From assembly GCF_053078305.1 (NCBI RefSeq), contig NZ_CP166879.1: DNA of 64,000 bases; one strand, given 5' to 3'. Made by a program: the position numbers and the translations under genes. Under the pieces are notes generated by a model. It ran no database searches. It saw nothing but the letters and a program-made list of their open reading frames with translations, and was not told the origin of the DNA. The first letter of the stretch is position 1. Each line of letters starts with the position of its first letter. This document shows, in pieces, positions 26,401 to 58,044 of the stretch.

Positions 26401-27765
26401 TTATGGCTGCCTCTCCTGATTGCCTGTGTGTTCCATCTGATAACGATTAATCAGCTGATTCAGTGCCATTTCAGCCTGTTTTTGCTGCTGTTCACTGCCA
26501 TTCTGATTACGGGCTTCATCATAGCGACGTAACTGCTCTTCTGCCGGGATATGCCGGTTAAAAGCCTGCATGATGCCAAACACCTCCGTTTTCAGTTCAC
26601 TGACCGTCATGTATTTTCCCCGCTGTTCATCCAGACGGTTCAGGCGCTCAGCCAGCTGCTGTAAGCGGGTCATGCCTTCGTTCCAGCCCGTCATCGCCTC
26701 TTCCGGAAGCGCTCGGCTCCTTACGCTCTTCTGCCAGTTATCCACCATTTCCTGAACACGGGGATTGTCGGGGAAAAGTCCCCTCAGTTGCTGCAGCAGC
26801 TGCGCACTGCGTTGCAGGTTGTATGCCGGCGGTAGTTCTGTCAGTCGCGTTATCTGCTGACCGGAAAGGGTTATCCACTCTGACGCATGATTTAACAGTG
26901 AGGGTGTTCTGCTGAGTTGCGCCATCTGGTCTGCTGAAAGCACATCCGGTAGTGGTGCCAGCAGCGCCCTGAGTTGCTGCTCCGCCGATGATGGCTGTGT
27001 CAGAAACTGCCATCCCGGAATGACCACGCTGACAGTCAGCAATGCCGCACAGACACCAGCCACAAACGGTTTCAGAAACGTGGGCGGGGATTTCTGAAGG
27101 GAGGGTGTGGGTTCTGCTTTTGTTTCAGAAACAACATACACCAGACGGGAGTACGGCAGGGGCTGATGTTCCTGTACATCCGGAGCATCAGACCGGAGTG
27201 CCTGAGCCGGAAGGGTTACCGGCGACGATACTTCACCCTGCACAGGCTGATTCTCCAGACGGGTGATATATCCCTTCACCATGGCTTCCGGTAAAGCCAC
27301 TTTACTGCTCTGTTTAAGTTCATGCCGGGCCAGTATGTCACTCAGCGTTTTCAGGCATGTTTCTGTCTGATACAGCAGGGGCAGATTGTCACGCTCATCC
27401 GGTGGCATGGCCCGGAGCGTTTTTTGCAGACGACTGAACAGACCGGTAATAATTTCCAGCCGGGCGTGGGTATTCAGCGGCCACATCACTGACCAGTGAT
27501 GCCGGGTCAGCGCCACAATCAGAGCCAGCCCTTCATTCAGACCACTTAACCCTGCTGTATGCATCCGGGCGATGGTGTACCAGGATACCGTCTGTAATTC
27601 CACGCCATTGTGTTCATACAGACGCAGGCAGAGCGTCTCCACATAACGCCAGTCCACATCCGGACGTGCCGGGTGAGTCAGCTTGCTGATTTCATCGCGC
27701 AGGGCAGCATAATCCGGTAATGACCGGGGGTCATTACCTGTTTTCAGTTTTACTTCAGAAGTCAT
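26401..27765 (-). CDS. T6SS-associated ImpA_N-domain membrane protein (VasL-like)
   Basis: 454 aa; N-terminal domain resembles the TssA N-terminus (DYAALRDEISKL...VSWYTIARMH versus TssA ...ATWYIWARL...) followed by one TM segment and a periplasmic region. Confidence 0.65.
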   Translation of the reverse strand: MTSEVKLKTGNDPRSLPDYAALRDEISKLTHPARPDVDWRYVETLCLRLYEHNGVELQTVSWYTIARMHTAGLSGLNEGLALIVALTRHHWSVMWPLNTHARLEIITGLFSRLQKTLRAMPPDERDNLPLLYQTETCLKTLSDILARHELKQSSKVALPEAMVKGYITRLENQPVQGEVSSPVTLPAQALRSDAPDVQEHQPLPYSRLVYVVSETKAEPTPSLQKSPPTFLKPFVAGVCAALLTVSVVIPGWQFLTQPSSAEQQLRALLAPLPDVLSADQMAQLSRTPSLLNHASEWITLSGQQITRLTELPPAYNLQRSAQLLQQLRGLFPDNPRVQEMVDNWQKSVRSRALPEEAMTGWNEGMTRLQQLAERLNRLDEQRGKYMTVSELKTEVFGIMQAFNRHIPAEEQLRRYDEARNQNGSEQQQKQAEMALNQLINRYQMEHTGNQERQP

Positions 27766-39793: not shown

Positions 39794-41476
39794 TTAAACA
39801 CCAGACATCATAACTTTAGTATTTTTTACTGCGTTATCATTCAATCGCTGCTGATCATCCATGTACCATACAGAACGAATCCAGCGATCATTTGGTTTAT
39901 TCGGAAAAACGAACGCCTTATTACCTTTAGGACCAAAGCGATGGATAAAAATCTCTCCCGTTGTAGGATCCACCCATAAATTACCATCAGACTCAATATT
40001 CCAGTTGGCAGAACAATGGGTGTATTTTCCGATAATATACAACTCTTCCTCAGTAAAAGCCTGAGGCTCTTGCCCCAAACGTACCGCTTTTCCCTGAGCA
40101 ATGGCTTTATCAACAAAAGGAATTAATTCAGGAGATAAATTCATATCTGGATTTTTGGGGTCAATTGGAGCAAACAATACCCCTGCTTCCTGAGCAGCAT
40201 CCAGCATCACACGCAGGCAAACATTAGCCCAGTCATTAGGTACTGCCATACGCTCAAAAAATACTGCGGCTCCCACCTGCTTTTGTATCACGCCAGCCCG
40301 ACGTTGATTGCTGTTGTTCACACCTACGGAACGAATTTTGGTGGTTAGTTTTCCATGAGGCAAAATATGTTTTAAGGCTGGCAGAGTCATCAACATTTTT
40401 CTGGCTTGCTCTGCATTACGGTATACTCGCGTATCTGTTTCTCTGGTATCGTCACTGACAATTTCAAATGCCGGGCAACTCAGAAACAGACTTTCATTTT
40501 CCTGCAGAGGTGAACCTACCGGATTGTAACCACCTCCAATATCTGAATGCGCCCCTGGTAAAGCCAGTTCGGGCCACATACCTTTAATACTGTTCAGGCT
40601 GAAATTATATCGGTATTCATTCATTGCAGTAATCTGGAAAACTTTCTTCGCGATGGAAGGACGCAATTCCAGCTTTACTCCCGGGTTGCTACGTCCATTA
40701 ATATCGAAGAAATTACTGATTCCACCAATAGCTGCGACAGTATCAAAAAGCCCCAGAAAACGGACTTCACCCGAAGGTTTACCATCATAAAAATCGCCTC
40801 TGAGCCCTTTAGCAATAGCTCTGGCTATAGCAGGATCCTGTTCCATAACCCGATTAGCAAAGTGCCTTGCCGCCGCTGCTCCCCGGCTAAAACCAAAAAC
40901 ATCAAACTGGATTTTTGCGATACAAAAATCAGGATTTAAATTGAACCCCATAAATTCTGATAACGCTTGGGTGATTCGTTCCATTGCCTCGTCGGTTTTC
41001 GTCACCACACCTTCAAATATATCCAGAATACTGGTGCCTAATCCCATGCCAATGACTGAATCTGCTTCACCAGCCGCAGTCCCTATCCCGGAAATGTAAG
41101 TCTGAATTTGTGCTTCAACCTGACTTTCCAACAAAGTCTGATCTGCTACGTAAAGTGAATTTAGCCAGTGGATATTGGAATAATATCCACGATAACTGCC
41201 ATTCGAGATACTGTTCTTGTTAATTTCTTCAAGAAAGTCCTCACAGCTTTGTGCATCTTTTTGATTTACCCCCTGTCTGGCTGCACTACACTCATTAAAT
41301 TTCATCAGACGAGATGCTGTATTCTCCCGATTGTTTCCGGTACCATCGAAAAATATACCAATGGTTAAAGTCACACCCCGCGCCGGTTTTTTCTTTGCAA
41401 CAACAACTTTCCAGTCATTATGAATACTGGTTTTATGGGTGGCATCTGTTACATCATATCCCTGATATTTTGTCAT
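39794..41476 (-). CDS. T6SS phospholipase effector, Tle1 family (DUF2235 alpha/beta hydrolase)
   Basis: 560 aa; hallmark motifs GIFFDGTGNN and GFSRGAAAARHF (GxSxG); start overlaps the vgrG stop (ATGA). Confidence 0.85.
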   Translation of the reverse strand: MTKYQGYDVTDATHKTSIHNDWKVVVAKKKPARGVTLTIGIFFDGTGNNRENTASRLMKFNECSAARQGVNQKDAQSCEDFLEEINKNSISNGSYRGYYSNIHWLNSLYVADQTLLESQVEAQIQTYISGIGTAAGEADSVIGMGLGTSILDIFEGVVTKTDEAMERITQALSEFMGFNLNPDFCIAKIQFDVFGFSRGAAAARHFANRVMEQDPAIARAIAKGLRGDFYDGKPSGEVRFLGLFDTVAAIGGISNFFDINGRSNPGVKLELRPSIAKKVFQITAMNEYRYNFSLNSIKGMWPELALPGAHSDIGGGYNPVGSPLQENESLFLSCPAFEIVSDDTRETDTRVYRNAEQARKMLMTLPALKHILPHGKLTTKIRSVGVNNSNQRRAGVIQKQVGAAVFFERMAVPNDWANVCLRVMLDAAQEAGVLFAPIDPKNPDMNLSPELIPFVDKAIAQGKAVRLGQEPQAFTEEELYIIGKYTHCSANWNIESDGNLWVDPTTGEIFIHRFGPKGNKAFVFPNKPNDRWIRSVWYMDDQQRLNDNAVKNTKVMMSGV

Positions 41477-53575: not shown

Positions 53576-54073
53576 TCACACCTGTTCCGGCACCAGTGCA
53601 CTCAGTTCGTCACGTAAGGCCTGACTCAGTTCGGGATCCCGCAGAATTTTTTCCAGTTCTTTACGGAAAGTGGCGTTATCCAGCAGATTCGCCTTCAGAT
53701 CCCGCAGAAGGCTGCGCATGGCCAGCATGGCTTTAAGACGGGGAATTTGTCGGGCGATCTGCTCTGGCGTGAAGTCGTTCATATTGCGGAAAGTCAGGCT
53801 GATGCTTTCTTCAGAGCCATCACCGGCAAGCGTGTTCTCCACATTCAGGCGTACTGACGGCGAGATATCAGCCAGAACAGCATTAAAGTTATTTTTATTA
53901 ACATCCATTTTTATGCGCTCTGACAGCGGGCGCTCTTCCTGTCCGTTACTGAAATCACCGGCAACCAGCAGTTTGAGCGGAAGCTCCACTTTCTTCTGCC
54001 CACCACCTGTATGTAGGTCTAATTTCAGATTCACCCTTGCCTTCGGGATCTCATTCTGAAACGAACTGCTCAT
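53576..54073 (-). CDS. tssB: T6SS sheath small subunit TssB (VipA)
   Basis: 165 aa from ATG at 54073 with AGGAG RBS; the ORF-track start at 54097 has no RBS. Confidence 0.9.
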   Translation of the reverse strand: MSSSFQNEIPKARVNLKLDLHTGGGQKKVELPLKLLVAGDFSNGQEERPLSERIKMDVNKNNFNAVLADISPSVRLNVENTLAGDGSEESISLTFRNMNDFTPEQIARQIPRLKAMLAMRSLLRDLKANLLDNATFRKELEKILRDPELSQALRDELSALVPEQV

Positions 54074-54167
54074 GACGTTCTCCTGTGAAACCTGCATCCC
54101 AGGGAGCCCATCGCCACAGAAGGCCTCCCCTTGTGCACTGATTTAATTTCACCCATTATAGGACGAA

Positions 54168-54226
54168 GATCTGCAAATTCTCAATATGACAGACATATCG
54201 ATCGTTTTAATGCCAATAACCAGATC
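54168..54226. promoter_or_regulatory. Cluster of three GATC (Dam) sites in the AT-rich region upstream of tssB, candidate T6SS promoter control region
   Basis: GATC at 54168, 54200 and 54223 within 60 bp, about 100-150 bp upstream of the tssB start. Confidence 0.35.
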
Positions 54227-54571
54227 TTTATTCTGATACATATCACAAAATCAGCATTTATCAAAACTTATATCCAGGAGTAATACAAAAATGCAGAAAA
54301 TTATTCCGGTTAGTGCTTTTGATACAGATGGTTATACCGAATGATTACCAGCAATGACATTCACGAGGAGTGATGATTCGGCAGCATTTAAGGGCATATC
54401 AGAAAAAGAGAAGGACATGAAAGAGGAGAGCAATAAAAGACACGGAAAATAAAGAAGAGAGAGAAAATATTTTTTAAAAACAGAAAATTAACAACGCACA
54501 TCAGGAAACGTCGTCTCCTGATTCAGTGATACCACATGAAAATTTAGTGAACGGTTACCGTTCTGAAGTCT

Positions 54572-54781
54572 ATGTCAGAAGATATTCCATTACCAAAAAT
54601 CAATCAGCGATACAGAGACGATCATGGCGCGCTTGTCACCGTGACCAGTGTTGAGGAAACCCGGGTGGTGTTTATGCGGGACGGCTATCCGCATCCCTGC
54701 ATGCGGCCGATGTACAACTTCCTGGGAAAATTCAAACCCGAACCCCGGAAAGAACCCCCTGCCGGCAATCACACTGCCTGA
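54572..54781 (+). CDS. Small hypothetical protein (69 aa)
   Basis: ORF only; no motif recognised. Confidence 0.4.
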   Translation: MSEDIPLPKINQRYRDDHGALVTVTSVEETRVVFMRDGYPHPCMRPMYNFLGKFKPEPRKEPPAGNHTA

Positions 54782-54800
54782 TGGCAGCATAATCCACTTA

Positions 54801-55034
54801 TTAATTCTCATCCCCGGAGACAAGCCCAGAAAACCACTCCGGGTGTTCACTGTATGCCGTGTTCAGCGCATCCCAGGAAACGTTGATATAAAAGCTGTCC
54901 TGCAATTTGCGGGTAACAATTTCTGCCACCCGGTTACGGTTATCCGCCTGTCCGGCATAACCTCTCTCTGCCAGCCACTCATTCAGTTCATGTTCCGGAG
55001 ACAGATTGATAATATCGTAATCGGACCTTGCCAT
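54801..55034 (-). CDS. Small hypothetical protein (77 aa)
   Basis: ORF only; acidic, no motif recognised. Confidence 0.4.
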   Translation of the reverse strand: MARSDYDIINLSPEHELNEWLAERGYAGQADNRNRVAEIVTRKLQDSFYINVSWDALNTAYSEHPEWFSGLVSGDEN

Positions 55035-55122
55035 TCCCGTTTCCTTAGCACATGTTTTCAGGCTCGGGGATAAAGAATGTCGTACTGCTGCTGCCAGAGC
55101 AATATTCCCCCTGATGGTCGAA

Positions 55123-55782
55123 TCAGAGATAGTAGGCCGGTACTTTGCGGGTTGTTCCCGTCAGATTATCATGCACCTCCGCGGTCGTTGTCACCACCGG
55201 CATTCCGCTCTTTCTCAACCTCAGGACATCAGCCGCAATACGCTGACTGCCGAACCAGAACAGGCCGTCCAGTGCAGTCACCAGCAACCCCGCCTCCAGC
55301 GCATGCTTCAGCCGTTCACGGGGCGCTTTCACTTCCCGGGCAATCTGCTGGTATGGCGATGATGTGTTATCATTCCCAATCACCCGGCGAATACGATGAG
55401 ACAGATGATACCGGTATGTATCCGGCACACCGGAAAGGCTGGCCTTCAGGCTGTACACGCAGCCAAAGCGTTTATCGTTGAACACCACATTTTTCTGGCT
55501 GATATCCCATTCTTCACGCAGCGCGGCAATCAGTTGTGGTGTCCGGGTAAGCAACAAGCGAAAAGGCAGTTCAAAACTGGTGACGTAATCCACATTCAGC
55601 AGTGCAATACGCAGCCGTTCTTCCGGCCCGGCCTCTGTCTGCCGGCACTCCTCCAGAACATCCTGCCACTGCTGGTGAAGGCGTGGAAGTTCATTCAGTT
55701 CAGTAAAACTGTATTTATCCGCAAGATAGTCAATTCGTGTACGCATACTGAAAAGAATTCCGTATAAAGATTCAGCTGGCAA
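55123..55782 (-). CDS. Hypothetical protein
   Basis: ORF-track start is TTG; the first ATG (MRTRIDYL...) is at about 55746; no motif recognised. Confidence 0.4.
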   Translation of the reverse strand: MPAESLYGILFSMRTRIDYLADKYSFTELNELPRLHQQWQDVLEECRQTEAGPEERLRIALLNVDYVTSFELPFRLLLTRTPQLIAALREEWDISQKNVVFNDKRFGCVYSLKASLSGVPDTYRYHLSHRIRRVIGNDNTSSPYQQIAREVKAPRERLKHALEAGLLVTALDGLFWFGSQRIAADVLRLRKSGMPVVTTTAEVHDNLTGTTRKVPAYYL

Positions 55783-55834
55783 AACTTTATCAGTCTGTAA
55801 AAACTAACGGAAGAGTCGATATTTCTCCCGTCCA

Positions 55835-56344
55835 TCACCGGATGATTGTTGCAATACCCCGTGGCATCAGAGACTGAACAGCCGTTTTTAACGCCACGTA
55901 TTGCCCTGATGAACCAGGCCGGGCAACCCGAAAACATCTTTCCACCCGGCATTGTCCGCCAGCACTTATCACCGACCAGGTCTGTTGCAGTAAATCCACC
56001 AGTTGCGCACATTCTTCATCAGCCATGACGCCGACTCGCGGATGGCAAATACTCGTCTGGCTGAGCAGCAACAGACATCGTATCTGTGCTCCTTCATGTT
56101 GTTCCCGCAACCAGCGTAATACCACCGGCGCTGATGGGCTGACCGTGTGATTATGCTCCGTAATACGTTCGTGTACCCGTCGGTGAAAGGAACTACAAAA
56201 TGTCTGAATCTGTTGACCATAGATTCCTTCTGCCGAATAGAGCGTGAAGTGAAATGCCAACAGATTTGGCCAGTGGTCCACCGCCTGCTGAACAAAACGC
56301 CGGATTTCCCCCGGCTCTGAAATTAAGGCTTCGGTTATTTGCAC
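55835..56344 (-). CDS. Hypothetical protein (169 aa)
   Basis: ORF only; no motif recognised. Confidence 0.4.
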   Translation of the reverse strand: MQITEALISEPGEIRRFVQQAVDHWPNLLAFHFTLYSAEGIYGQQIQTFCSSFHRRVHERITEHNHTVSPSAPVVLRWLREQHEGAQIRCLLLLSQTSICHPRVGVMADEECAQLVDLLQQTWSVISAGGQCRVERCFRVARPGSSGQYVALKTAVQSLMPRGIATIIR

Positions 56345-56789
56345 GAAATGTTCCTTTTCAACCCCTGTTGAATTTTGTCAAGCCGGTGCAGACACAGTAA
56401 AGCGCGCATCAACACCTGAAAGGTACGATACAAACACAAGTTACAAACAATAAGAACGGAAGGACAATTAATCAGTGAGGAATAATAACTAAATTAACCA
56501 AAAGAATGTTACTGACAATACTACCAATACTTAAATAGCAATATATTAATTAATGTAAGAACAGATGCCCGGTAAGACATATACACAATACATCCACAAA
56601 CACACTCTTTTCATTAAATCAATCACCTGATTAAACCATGAAAGTGTGATGTAAGTCAAAATTACTGACACTATCAATTGATAATGATTATCTCTATCAT
56701 TATCGTGAAATTCGAGAATGAAAGGAGAAGTAGTCATTATAAGCCTTTTATAAATCGTCATCATCATAGTAAAGTAGAACACTTTTTAT

Positions 56790-57260
56790 ATGAGTTACTA
56801 TATGAAAATATACTGGACAAGAAAACGCATTCCTGAACTTTCAGCACTTCCACCTTCATTAAGAAAGAAAAATTTTACTGACGCATATAATGCAGCATCT
56901 TCTCATATCGAATACTGGATAGGTGCTGGCGTCTCATTTATCTCGATGATGATTTTATCCAGAGTATATGACTTTCTTTTACCCGCCCAAGATACTTTCC
57001 CGGGTGATATCATCAGAAGTTTATGTGTTGTGTGTCCATCCATATTAATCTGGTTTCAGTTTTCGGTATATGTCATGAGGAAATATTACAGACATATTCT
57101 GGTGCGAGGAAAAGAAACCGAAACCATTTCAGAAAGGTTGATACGTGAGGCTGATACACGAGAATATGAACTATGGCGTCCGGTCCGTCGCTTTTTCTCC
57201 ATTATTTTTCTCATTATTCTATTAGTTTGCATTCATTCACTGATAACAACTATAAAATAA
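56790..57260 (+). CDS. Integral membrane protein of unknown function in the microcin locus (156 aa)
   Basis: Predicted TM segments (VSFISMMILSRVY, LCVVCPSILIWFQFSVYV, FFSIIFLIILLVCIHSLI); AT-rich. Confidence 0.5.
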   Translation: MSYYMKIYWTRKRIPELSALPPSLRKKNFTDAYNAASSHIEYWIGAGVSFISMMILSRVYDFLLPAQDTFPGDIIRSLCVVCPSILIWFQFSVYVMRKYYRHILVRGKETETISERLIREADTREYELWRPVRRFFSIIFLIILLVCIHSLITTIK

Positions 57261-57357
57261 AAGTTATGGCTGTTCTGATACAGGAAAATAAACGTTCATT
57301 CTATGGTTACCTCTTCCTATTATAGAAGAATTTTAAACGACAAGTAAGGGAATATAA

Positions 57358-58044
57358 ATGGAAATAACAAAAAATAAAAATGCAACTATAAAAAAACAGT
57401 CATCAGTCGGCTGCTTTTCAATGTTTACCTTATCATTTTCTATTACCTTTATTCCTGTATTCCTTACAAACAGGCAGGAACTTATATCCAGGGGACTTCT
57501 TGTTCCAGCATTATTTCTTGCTGAATTTCTAATTCTTGTTCCACTGTATTTTATTTTCTTCCGAAAAAGAGAAGGATTAGGAAGAGGCTCTTTTCGACTG
57601 GATGTTTTTTTTACTCTTTTCTCTTTAATAATGATTATTCAGTTATTTGTCCCTTATCTGCTGGCAGTGAGGAAAACGGAAGAATGGATGATCTCGCAAA
57701 TGTCTTTTTCCGGGGCCATTTTATGGATTAATATATTTTCTTCCGTACTTCTTGTTCCTGTATATGAAGAGATTGTATTTCGAGGGTGTCTTTTTAACTC
57801 TTTTAAATTCTGGTTTAATGACAATATTTACATCTCTGCTATTGTAACATCAGTCATATTTTCTGCATTACATCTACAATATACTGACTTTCGTACATTT
57901 TTGATGCTCTTTCTGATATCGTTAGTTCTTATCAGTGCAAAAATAAAGTCGAATGGCCTGTTAATGCCCATATTACTTCACATGGCGATGAATGCAGTCA
58001 TAACAGGAATACAATATACGTTACAATATCACATAACAGTCTGA
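57358..58044 (+). CDS. CPBP-family (CAAX protease / Abi) intramembrane metalloprotease, MceF/McmM-like microcin accessory protein
   Basis: 228 aa; the three CPBP motifs are present (YEEIVFRG, FSALHLQY, LHMAMNAV); polytopic. Confidence 0.8.
   Translation: MEITKNKNATIKKQSSVGCFSMFTLSFSITFIPVFLTNRQELISRGLLVPALFLAEFLILVPLYFIFFRKREGLGRGSFRLDVFFTLFSLIMIIQLFVPYLLAVRKTEEWMISQMSFSGAILWINIFSSVLLVPVYEEIVFRGCLFNSFKFWFNDNIYISAIVTSVIFSALHLQYTDFRTFLMLFLISLVLISAKIKSNGLLMPILLHMAMNAVITGIQYTLQYHITV

Follow-up and report, generated by a model that had tools for sequence, protein, structure and literature searches.

Four small genes, here called A to D, lie between the promoter of a type VI secretion system (T6SS) and a microcin locus, at positions 54,572 to 56,344 of a 64,000-nucleotide stretch of DNA, hereafter the window (NCBI RefSeq assembly GCF_053078305.1, contig NZ_CP166879.1). 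We think it rather probable that this cluster is a seam between two blocks. The first (A-B-C, 54572-55812) would be the conserved 5' flank of a Sci-1-type T6SS, with C and A as regulators, and the second (D) would be an island-backbone gene of the YagK/YfjJ Rep-like family from which the HUH motif has been lost. The 5' end of D, together with the sequence upstream of it, would serve as the imperfect direct repeat for insertion and excision of the microcin H47 island. Elsewhere in E. coli, B and C, accompanied by A or not, flank contact-dependent inhibition (CDI) or two-partner secretion loci instead. We suggest that the adjacent AT-rich promoter region contains DNA bound by C, perhaps jointly with A, and that transcription of the neighbouring weapon locus would thereby be modulated, in addition to the control of Sci-1 by Fur and Dam. 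The cassette is kept even where the weapon locus has decayed, which suggests that C also has targets in trans.

The host of the window is E. coli, and its best matches are Shiga toxin-producing and clinical strains, at 99.2-99.8% identity. The closest genomes have a T6SS with Tle1/Tli1-EAEC, which identifies the T6SS as one of the Sci-1 type.

Gene C and its position at the head of T6SS and CDI loci

RefSeq labels gene C an ECs1377 family protein, and it matches the equivalog model of that family, NCBIfam NF052300, at 324 bits (cutoff 190) over profile positions 1-190/190. It is also a member of phrog_24243, a prophage protein family. The AlphaFold2 model is confident (predicted local distance difference test score, pLDDT, 94.6) and has two domains, an orphan N-terminal domain of about 125 amino acids (aa) and a C-terminal winged helix-turn-helix (HTH). 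PDB sequence searches with A, B and C returned nothing. A preliminary description of this region, made from the letters and a list of open reading frames (ORFs), had recognised no motif in any of the four genes, an impression that gave way once profile tools assigned A, C and D to named families. Its suggestion that regulators might lie here agrees well with C as a winged-helix DNA-binding protein, and with A as a member of the RgdR family (DUF4222). Both A and C are probable DNA-binding regulators.

A scan of one genome per species found C at 80 loci, at 59-92% identity, in Escherichia, Citrobacter, Kosakonia, Klebsiella, Enterobacter, Serratia, Rahnella, Erwinia, Pantoea and others, and an alignment of 82 sequences contains 38 invariant positions. 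The ratio of nonsynonymous to synonymous substitution rates (dN/dS), calculated pairwise by the Nei-Gojobori method between the window copy and other copies, is 0.07-0.25 when C is compared with intact copies of full length, among them those of other genera (dS >1); two E. coli copies that are degraded or partial gave 0.31-0.35. One 422-bp contig of a Gram-positive assembly, that of Macrococcus carouselicus (L079), codes for a fragment that shares 94% identity with C of E. coli, and probably represents assembly contamination.

C also has a conserved sequence of its own upstream. In 36 of 85 loci, the upstream neighbours of which are unrelated, the motif T[GA][GA]TAAAGT precedes the start codon by 36-50 nt. 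When these regions are aligned across genera, a block of about 66-80 nt emerges that consists of TTCCGG, a 17-nt spacer, TGnTAAAGT and a 5' untranslated region (5'UTR) with AGAAGGGAA, followed by the ATG, and this block travels with the ECs1377-family gene whatever the upstream neighbour (loci L005-L092). In the window the corresponding elements are a -35 hexamer TTCCGT (55807-55812), a 17-nt spacer ending in TGA, and a -10 hexamer TAAAGT (55784-55789). The block reads as an extended -10 promoter plus leader, and in the window this predicted promoter and leader occupy most of the 88-bp gap between D and C. As C has its own predicted promoter in that gap, it would be transcribed on its own and would not belong to a D-C operon. 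The D-C gap (55747-55834) and the C-B gap (55035-55122) are both exactly 88 bp long, and 87 bp follow the plasmid homologue of C described below (L100 7625-7711); the length of the D-C gap is explained by the C promoter, and the equal spacing downstream of C may be chance.

The conserved promoter and 5'UTR bear on where C begins as well. The preliminary description noted that two of the four ORFs apparently start at non-ATG codons. This holds for D, the GTG start of which is kept in the RefSeq annotation (a 510-nt coding sequence) and has AAGGA just 5' of it. For C it does not hold: the 624-nt RefSeq coding sequence, the starts of homologues in other genera, and the conserved block directly upstream all place the start at the ATG at 55746. 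The TTG start and the length of 219 aa are an artefact of choosing the longest ORF, and the protein has 207 aa.

The surroundings of C are highly variable. The 230 neighbour genes fall into 160 sequence clusters, no neighbour gene is conserved across 91 C loci, and Pfam searches of 109 genes downstream of C gave a housekeeping mix. Within this diversity, C lies directly upstream of, and co-oriented with, tssB of a Sci-1-type T6SS in the window and in O104:H4. It is likewise upstream of tssB in Kosakonia radicincitans and K. sacchari (gap of about 610 bp) and in Citrobacter (about 1 kb), and again of a Sci-1-type T6SS in Serratia oryzae. In S. ureilytica and Yokenella it precedes a different type of T6SS, in an Enterobacter a VgrG gene, and in a Pluralibacter genome a microcin-type exporter. 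In E. coli W224N and Nissle 1917 it lies upstream of cdiB-cdiA, and the cdiB-B-C junction occurs in 403 complete genomes. Two-partner secretion genes of the cdiB/tpsB type lie downstream of C in Citrobacter sp. 18056, in Serratia DD3 and Ag1, and in Cedecea, the Citrobacter gene being the only close CdiB homologue among them. When equal lengths of sequence were searched on each side of C in about 78 usable loci of the 80-locus set, weapon loci were found downstream 11 times and upstream once (binomial p = 0.006). We found no earlier description in the literature of a linkage between the ECs1377 family and T6SS or CDI loci.

The alleles of C group by host and not by the linked system. Those of E. 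coli are 84-93% identical whether they stand beside a T6SS, a CDI locus or the O157 remnant, and those of Serratia beside a T6SS or a two-partner secretion locus are 91-92% identical. E. coli copies of C without a T6SS often adjoin its remnants, such as tssB alone, tssB with a tssC fragment, or VasL/ImpA fragments. In E. coli, C alleles often outlive the decay of adjacent T6SS and CDI loci.

The position of C recalls that of RovC of Yersinia pseudotuberculosis, an activator whose gene lies immediately upstream of the T6SS4 cluster (PMC7535981). Both are small proteins in which an uncharacterised N-terminal domain, a mixture of helices and strands, is joined to a C-terminal HTH-type DNA-binding domain, both stand directly upstream of a T6SS cluster, and both have homologues in Serratia, Trabulsiella and Erwinia. 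C is so placed in the window and in O104:H4, and also in Kosakonia, Citrobacter and S. oryzae, which is a minority of the species. C differs in being co-oriented with the T6SS and not divergent from it, and neither homology to RovC nor likeness to its fold (PDB 6XZ5) was supported. We therefore regard C as an analogue of RovC at most.

The linkage could also have arisen if C were a global or xenogeneic regulator (an anti-silencer of H-NS-bound AT-rich DNA, say) that stands next to weapons only because T6SS, CDI, hemolysin and conjugation genes share the same acquired DNA. Such a role would suit the orphan status of most homologues, which stand among unrelated genes, the predicted promoter that C carries with it, its survival after loss of the adjacent T6SS, and island neighbours that include Hha, PerC and HTH regulators. 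It would also suit the homologues on plasmids, of which there are 536 (495 of them conjugative; 63-64% aa identity): on IncK2/Z (I-complex) plasmids the gene lies between nuc and excA (L099 7001-7624), and a pO157-like IncF plasmid has it upstream of a DUF2569 gene and of ehxCABD, the enterohemolysin operon (L100 7001-14621). The identification of the I-complex homologue as "yggA" was rejected, since yggA is a different small gene near oriT. A global regulator would not be expected to keep so strictly to the upstream, co-oriented position, at 0.45-1 kb from the first T6SS or CDI gene in several genera, and C shows no likeness to the anti-silencers Ler, SlyA/RovA and VirB beyond a generic winged helix. 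For these reasons we consider a purely global role unlikely.

Genes A and B and the tssB side of the cluster

Gene A, a DUF4222 protein in RefSeq, matches Pfam PF13973 at 80.4 bits (cutoff 27; E 7.1e-23) over profile positions 1-52/53, and also phrog_1343 and phrog_285. The only DUF4222 protein studied to date is RgdR (ECs1581), a 99-aa prophage regulator of motility and of type III secretion from LEE, the enterocyte effacement locus, in enterohaemorrhagic E. coli O157:H7, the RGD tripeptide of which was shown to matter for LEE activation (PMC3378721). The 63-aa products of z1197/z1636 (OI-43/48) and ecs5415 (SpLE1) were named "RgdR truncates" (Flockhart et al. 2012, PMC3378721). Aligned with the 63-aa alleles of O157 and O104:H4, gene A differs solely in the C-terminal tail, and by sequence it is the same gene as the truncates with a slightly different tail, 69 aa against 63. 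Like RgdR it is small and island-borne, and it has the DUF4222 domain at full length. It is not a full-length RgdR: at 69 aa against 99 it lacks the C-terminal third, contains RDD and RDG and no RGD, and is encoded divergently from a T6SS operon, not within a prophage. Any regulatory activity of A would be one of the short form. The gene is intact in the window and frameshifted in the nearest relatives, at 99.8% identity (L001 12473-12681; L101 25571-25779).

Between A and tssB lies a 474-bp intergenic region (54098-54571) of 38% GC, with a strong tssB promoter-like site and three GATC sites. The Sci-1 T6SS promoter, Psci1, has Fur boxes and three GATC sites (PMC13262931), and the sequence of the intergenic region is consistent with such a promoter. 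In E. coli copies without a T6SS, homology to the window mostly begins at a few positions, about 54139-54154, some 40-55 bp upstream of the tssB start, and the AT-rich Psci1-like region is retained in these genomes. Such shared breakpoints imply a few ancestral deletion or insertion sequence (IS) events that later spread. One of the nearest relatives also has a frameshift in tssK (L101 21658-22994), which is intact in the window.

For gene B, a hypothetical protein in RefSeq, searches of Pfam, NCBIfam, PHROGs, PADLOC and the PDB returned nothing. Its 138 relatives, among which a 62-aa form is common, are nearly all from E. coli, and the gene is largely confined to Escherichia; single matches named Edwardsiella tarda and Vibrio parahaemolyticus are possibly contamination. 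Its place is between C and the secretion locus downstream, and it accompanies C in both the T6SS-linked and the CDI-linked arrangements.

Gene D and the attachment repeat of the microcin H47 island

Gene D is labelled a UCP030791 family putative phage-derived protein in RefSeq and an "inovirus Gp2 family" protein in some other sources. It has no direct Pfam match at E up to 1, PF11726 (YagK_YfjJ_C) included. Relatives at 27-36% identity came out of an exhaustive HMMER search, and several of these reach PF11726 at an E of about 1e-3, below the cutoff; comparison of a D-clade profile with PF11726-positive island proteins gave a probability of 96.3% (E 1.7e-9). The fold of D is a ferredoxin-like Rep/palm. 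D thus shares profile-level homology, the Rep/palm fold and an island-backbone setting with the YagK/YfjJ proteins of CP4-6/CP4-57-type islands, and differs from them in falling below Pfam significance and in having lost the HUH motif: their HYH aligns to Q-I-R in D, and the motif is absent throughout the distant clade to which D belongs, in which the consensus is xxRMLLL. A match of D to AcaB in the PDB sequence search was weak (E 0.14) and was treated as insignificant. D is best read as a divergent YagK/YfjJ homologue (inovirus Gp2-like, Rep/HUH fold) and a catalytically dead Rep-like relic. With the HUH motif gone, it would be at most a DNA-binding relic, for which a nuclease role is not expected. 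This gene bears out the earlier suggestion of an integrative-element remnant, as a degenerate YagK/YfjJ relative whose 5' end lies in the direct repeat of the H47 island.

The microcin H47 island has imperfect repeats at its borders and excises and integrates without encoding a recombinase (Azpiroz et al., PMC3191183, PMC5426353); it was reported inside a genomic island of enteroaggregative E. coli 042 (PMC3191183; PMC5426353). In a genome near-identical to the window (L101) we found a 43-nt imperfect direct repeat (81%) at 27307-27349, which corresponds to window 56309-56351, and at 40982-41024. The copies are 13.7 kb apart, with the distal one beyond the microcin genes. The window copy consists of D codons 1-12 and 7 nt upstream, and the distal copy can be read as a D-like N-terminus in which GTG, the start codon, has become GAG. 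Judged by these sequences, it was a YagK/YfjJ-like gene whose 5' end gave rise to the attachment repeats of the H47 island. Of the published primers, the internal in1 maps beside the distal (right) repeat (L101 40784-40806, 1 mismatch) and the external out2 maps inside the D-like gene of W224N (L097, 1 mismatch). As the repeats bracket the mch genes and the primers map as expected, D is the outer flank of the H47-island attachment site. In W224N the D-like gene is directly followed by an HTH gene, which in L101 lies beyond the distal repeat, and the W224N layout looks like an unoccupied insertion site of the island.

Two points set this picture apart from the published one. The papers on the H47 island do not describe the flank as a gene, and here the repeat is the first 12 codons and the leader of one. 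The published repeats are 148 and 144 bp long at 76% identity, and the similar core here is 43 nt at 81%; extending it toward the published 148 bp by permissive alignment gave an unconvincing 55% identity, so that the 148/144-bp extent was not reproduced.

Just inside the island are ORF E (56790-57260, plus strand; 156 aa, membrane-like, no Pfam family) and a gene for a CPBP-family intramembrane protease (57358-58044, plus strand). CPBP proteins are often bacteriocin self-immunity factors. Compared with SpLE1 of O157, genes A-C are 88-95% identical, as against 98-99% for D and E, and C is found without D in O104:H4, in Nissle and in almost all loci of other genera, one of which has a weak D-like match near C. 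This step in identity and the occurrence of C without D are consistent with two blocks. In O157:H7 ATCC 35150 (L096 4406-12628, SpLE1/OI-43/48), A-B-C-D-E are followed by a truncated CPBP gene and then an IS1, beyond which come the 3' part of an alpha/beta-hydrolase gene and the glycosyltransferase of the microcin cluster, and a truncated POTRA/HecB gene stands on the A side. The O157 arrangement looks like a decayed version of the intact one in the window.

These repeats and breakpoints raise the question of whether the sequences themselves, and not their products, account for the seam. C, with or without B, could be a homology arm for swapping T6SS, CDI and microcin loci, and D with its repeat likewise for the microcin island, the functions of the proteins being secondary. 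Near-identical C alleles do flank either a T6SS or a CDI or two-partner secretion locus within E. coli and within Serratia, many genomes share breakpoints just upstream of tssB (about 54139-54154), there is a mosaic step in identity between C and D, and imperfect repeats at the 5' end of D are the sites between which the H47 island recombines, independently of RecA, when it moves (PMC3191183; PMC5426353). A mere homology arm, however, would need neither the many invariant residues nor the confident two-domain fold of C, and would not account for strong purifying selection on the protein across genera (dN/dS about 0.1) or for orphan copies among core genes without swapped cargo. We judge it improbable that recombination is the main role of C.

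It is also conceivable that an integrative element or satellite once had a module for its replication or maintenance, with a Rep-like initiator and a DNA-binding partner that controlled island excision or replication, and that D and C are what remains of it. The Rep/HUH fold of D, its homology to the YagK/YfjJ "inovirus Gp2 family" proteins, the recurrence of D-like genes in the integrase-proximal island backbone, in company with HTH, Hha and YfjI genes, and the match of C to a prophage family all point in this direction. We nevertheless hold this to be very improbable, for D is without the HUH histidines, C and D are not co-inherited, the promoter of C lies in the gap between them, excision of the microcin island needs neither flank (PMC3191183), and only one phage record contains a C homologue.

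The cluster as a whole and its meaning

In the program-made six-frame list of ORFs in the window, the cluster comprises exactly the four ORFs of 69-219 aa that the preliminary description had placed between the T6SS promoter and the microcin locus (69 aa from ATG, 77 aa from ATG, 219 aa from TTG and 169 aa from GTG), bounded by tssB (53576-54097, minus strand) and the AT-rich start of the microcin block. Its GC content is 50-54%, against 31-40% on both sides. The segment 54100-56800 is matched in 2956 of 5426 complete E. coli genomes, at a median of two places per genome, and 80% or more of it is covered at a single place in 727 genomes. The values of dN/dS are 0.14-0.57 for A, 0.16-0.56 for B (from few substitutions) and 0.31-0.66 for D. 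The coordinates are collected in Table 1. Searches of 54000-57000 for repeats, promoters and terminators gave nothing notable beyond the tssB promoter-like site, with counts not above those of shuffled controls, and Rfam searches of 53900-57400 (E up to 1) gave no RNA family.

Table 1. Positions in the window of the genes and sites discussed in the text.
Feature	Position	Strand	Basis
tssB promoter-like site, TTGAGA-18-TATAAT	54155..54184	-	11/12 consensus matches
Gene A, DUF4222/RgdR family short form, 69 aa	54572..54781	+	Pfam PF13973
Gene B, acidic, 77 aa, no family	54801..55034	-	ORF and relatives, mostly E. coli
Gene C, ECs1377 family, 207 aa	55123..55746	-	NCBIfam NF052300
Predicted gene C promoter and 5'UTR	55747..55812	-	Conserved sequence block
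Gene D, UCP030791 type, 169 aa, GTG start	55835..56344	-	YagK/YfjJ profile homology
Direct-repeat core (putative attachment site), microcin H47 island	56309..56351		Repeat copy and primer mapping

The four ORFs are thus real, conserved island genes of E. coli and not decayed fragments, the outcome that the preliminary description had named as its own refutation and that is ruled out by the prevalence of the segment, the presence of C in other genera and the dN/dS values. The suggestion that they are a toxin-antitoxin pair, an anti-phage defence cassette or pseudogene debris, as might be expected of small genes without known function at an island junction, some copies of which are frameshifted in other strains, is effectively excluded: PADLOC found nothing for the four ORFs, ORF E or the CPBP gene, there is no toxin, antitoxin or defence match in Pfam or NCBIfam either, A and B are convergent and not co-transcribed, C has its own predicted promoter, and all four window copies are intact, with dN/dS <1 for each and with C conserved across a bacterial order. 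The junction is of the ordinary island kind, now resolved into named parts, and the linkage of C to T6SS and CDI loci is the exception.

Several observations weigh against the proposal that A-B-C are a T6SS flank with regulators and D an island-backbone gene at the H47 attachment site. In the one-genome-per-species sample, neither a T6SS nor a CDI locus lies within 8 kb of about 85% of the C homologues, which stand among housekeeping genes, for example in K. pneumoniae and S. marcescens, and the T6SS-1 linkages may go back to one ancestral co-transfer, so that independent events would be fewer than loci. No operator-like motif shared by the upstream regions on the T6SS side and on the CDI side was found, the best common 12-mer being of low complexity and scoring 10, against 12-13 in shuffles. 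Studies of Sci-1 explain its expression by Fur and Dam alone (PMC13262931), gene A is the truncated form of RgdR without the RGD tripeptide, and the DNA binding of RgdR itself is weak and non-specific (PMC3378721). For D, the dN/dS values are compatible with relaxed constraint, and excision of the H47 island is independent of flanking genes (PMC3191183).

More tentatively, and with the odds on the whole against it, we raise the possibility that the ECs1377 family is an unrecognised class of local weapon-locus regulators in Enterobacterales, which would persist as orphans with targets in trans after the weapon is lost. Such regulators may stand at the 5' edge of Sci-1-type T6SS, of CDI and two-partner secretion loci, and perhaps of hemolysin or microcin-export operons. 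If this is true, Sci-1, a model T6SS the regulation of which is currently ascribed to Fur and Dam only, would have a dedicated protein regulator beyond these two. The recurrent placement of C at the heads of T6SS and CDI loci in several genera makes it a candidate regulator for contact-dependent competition systems, and such a role may also explain why C outlives them.

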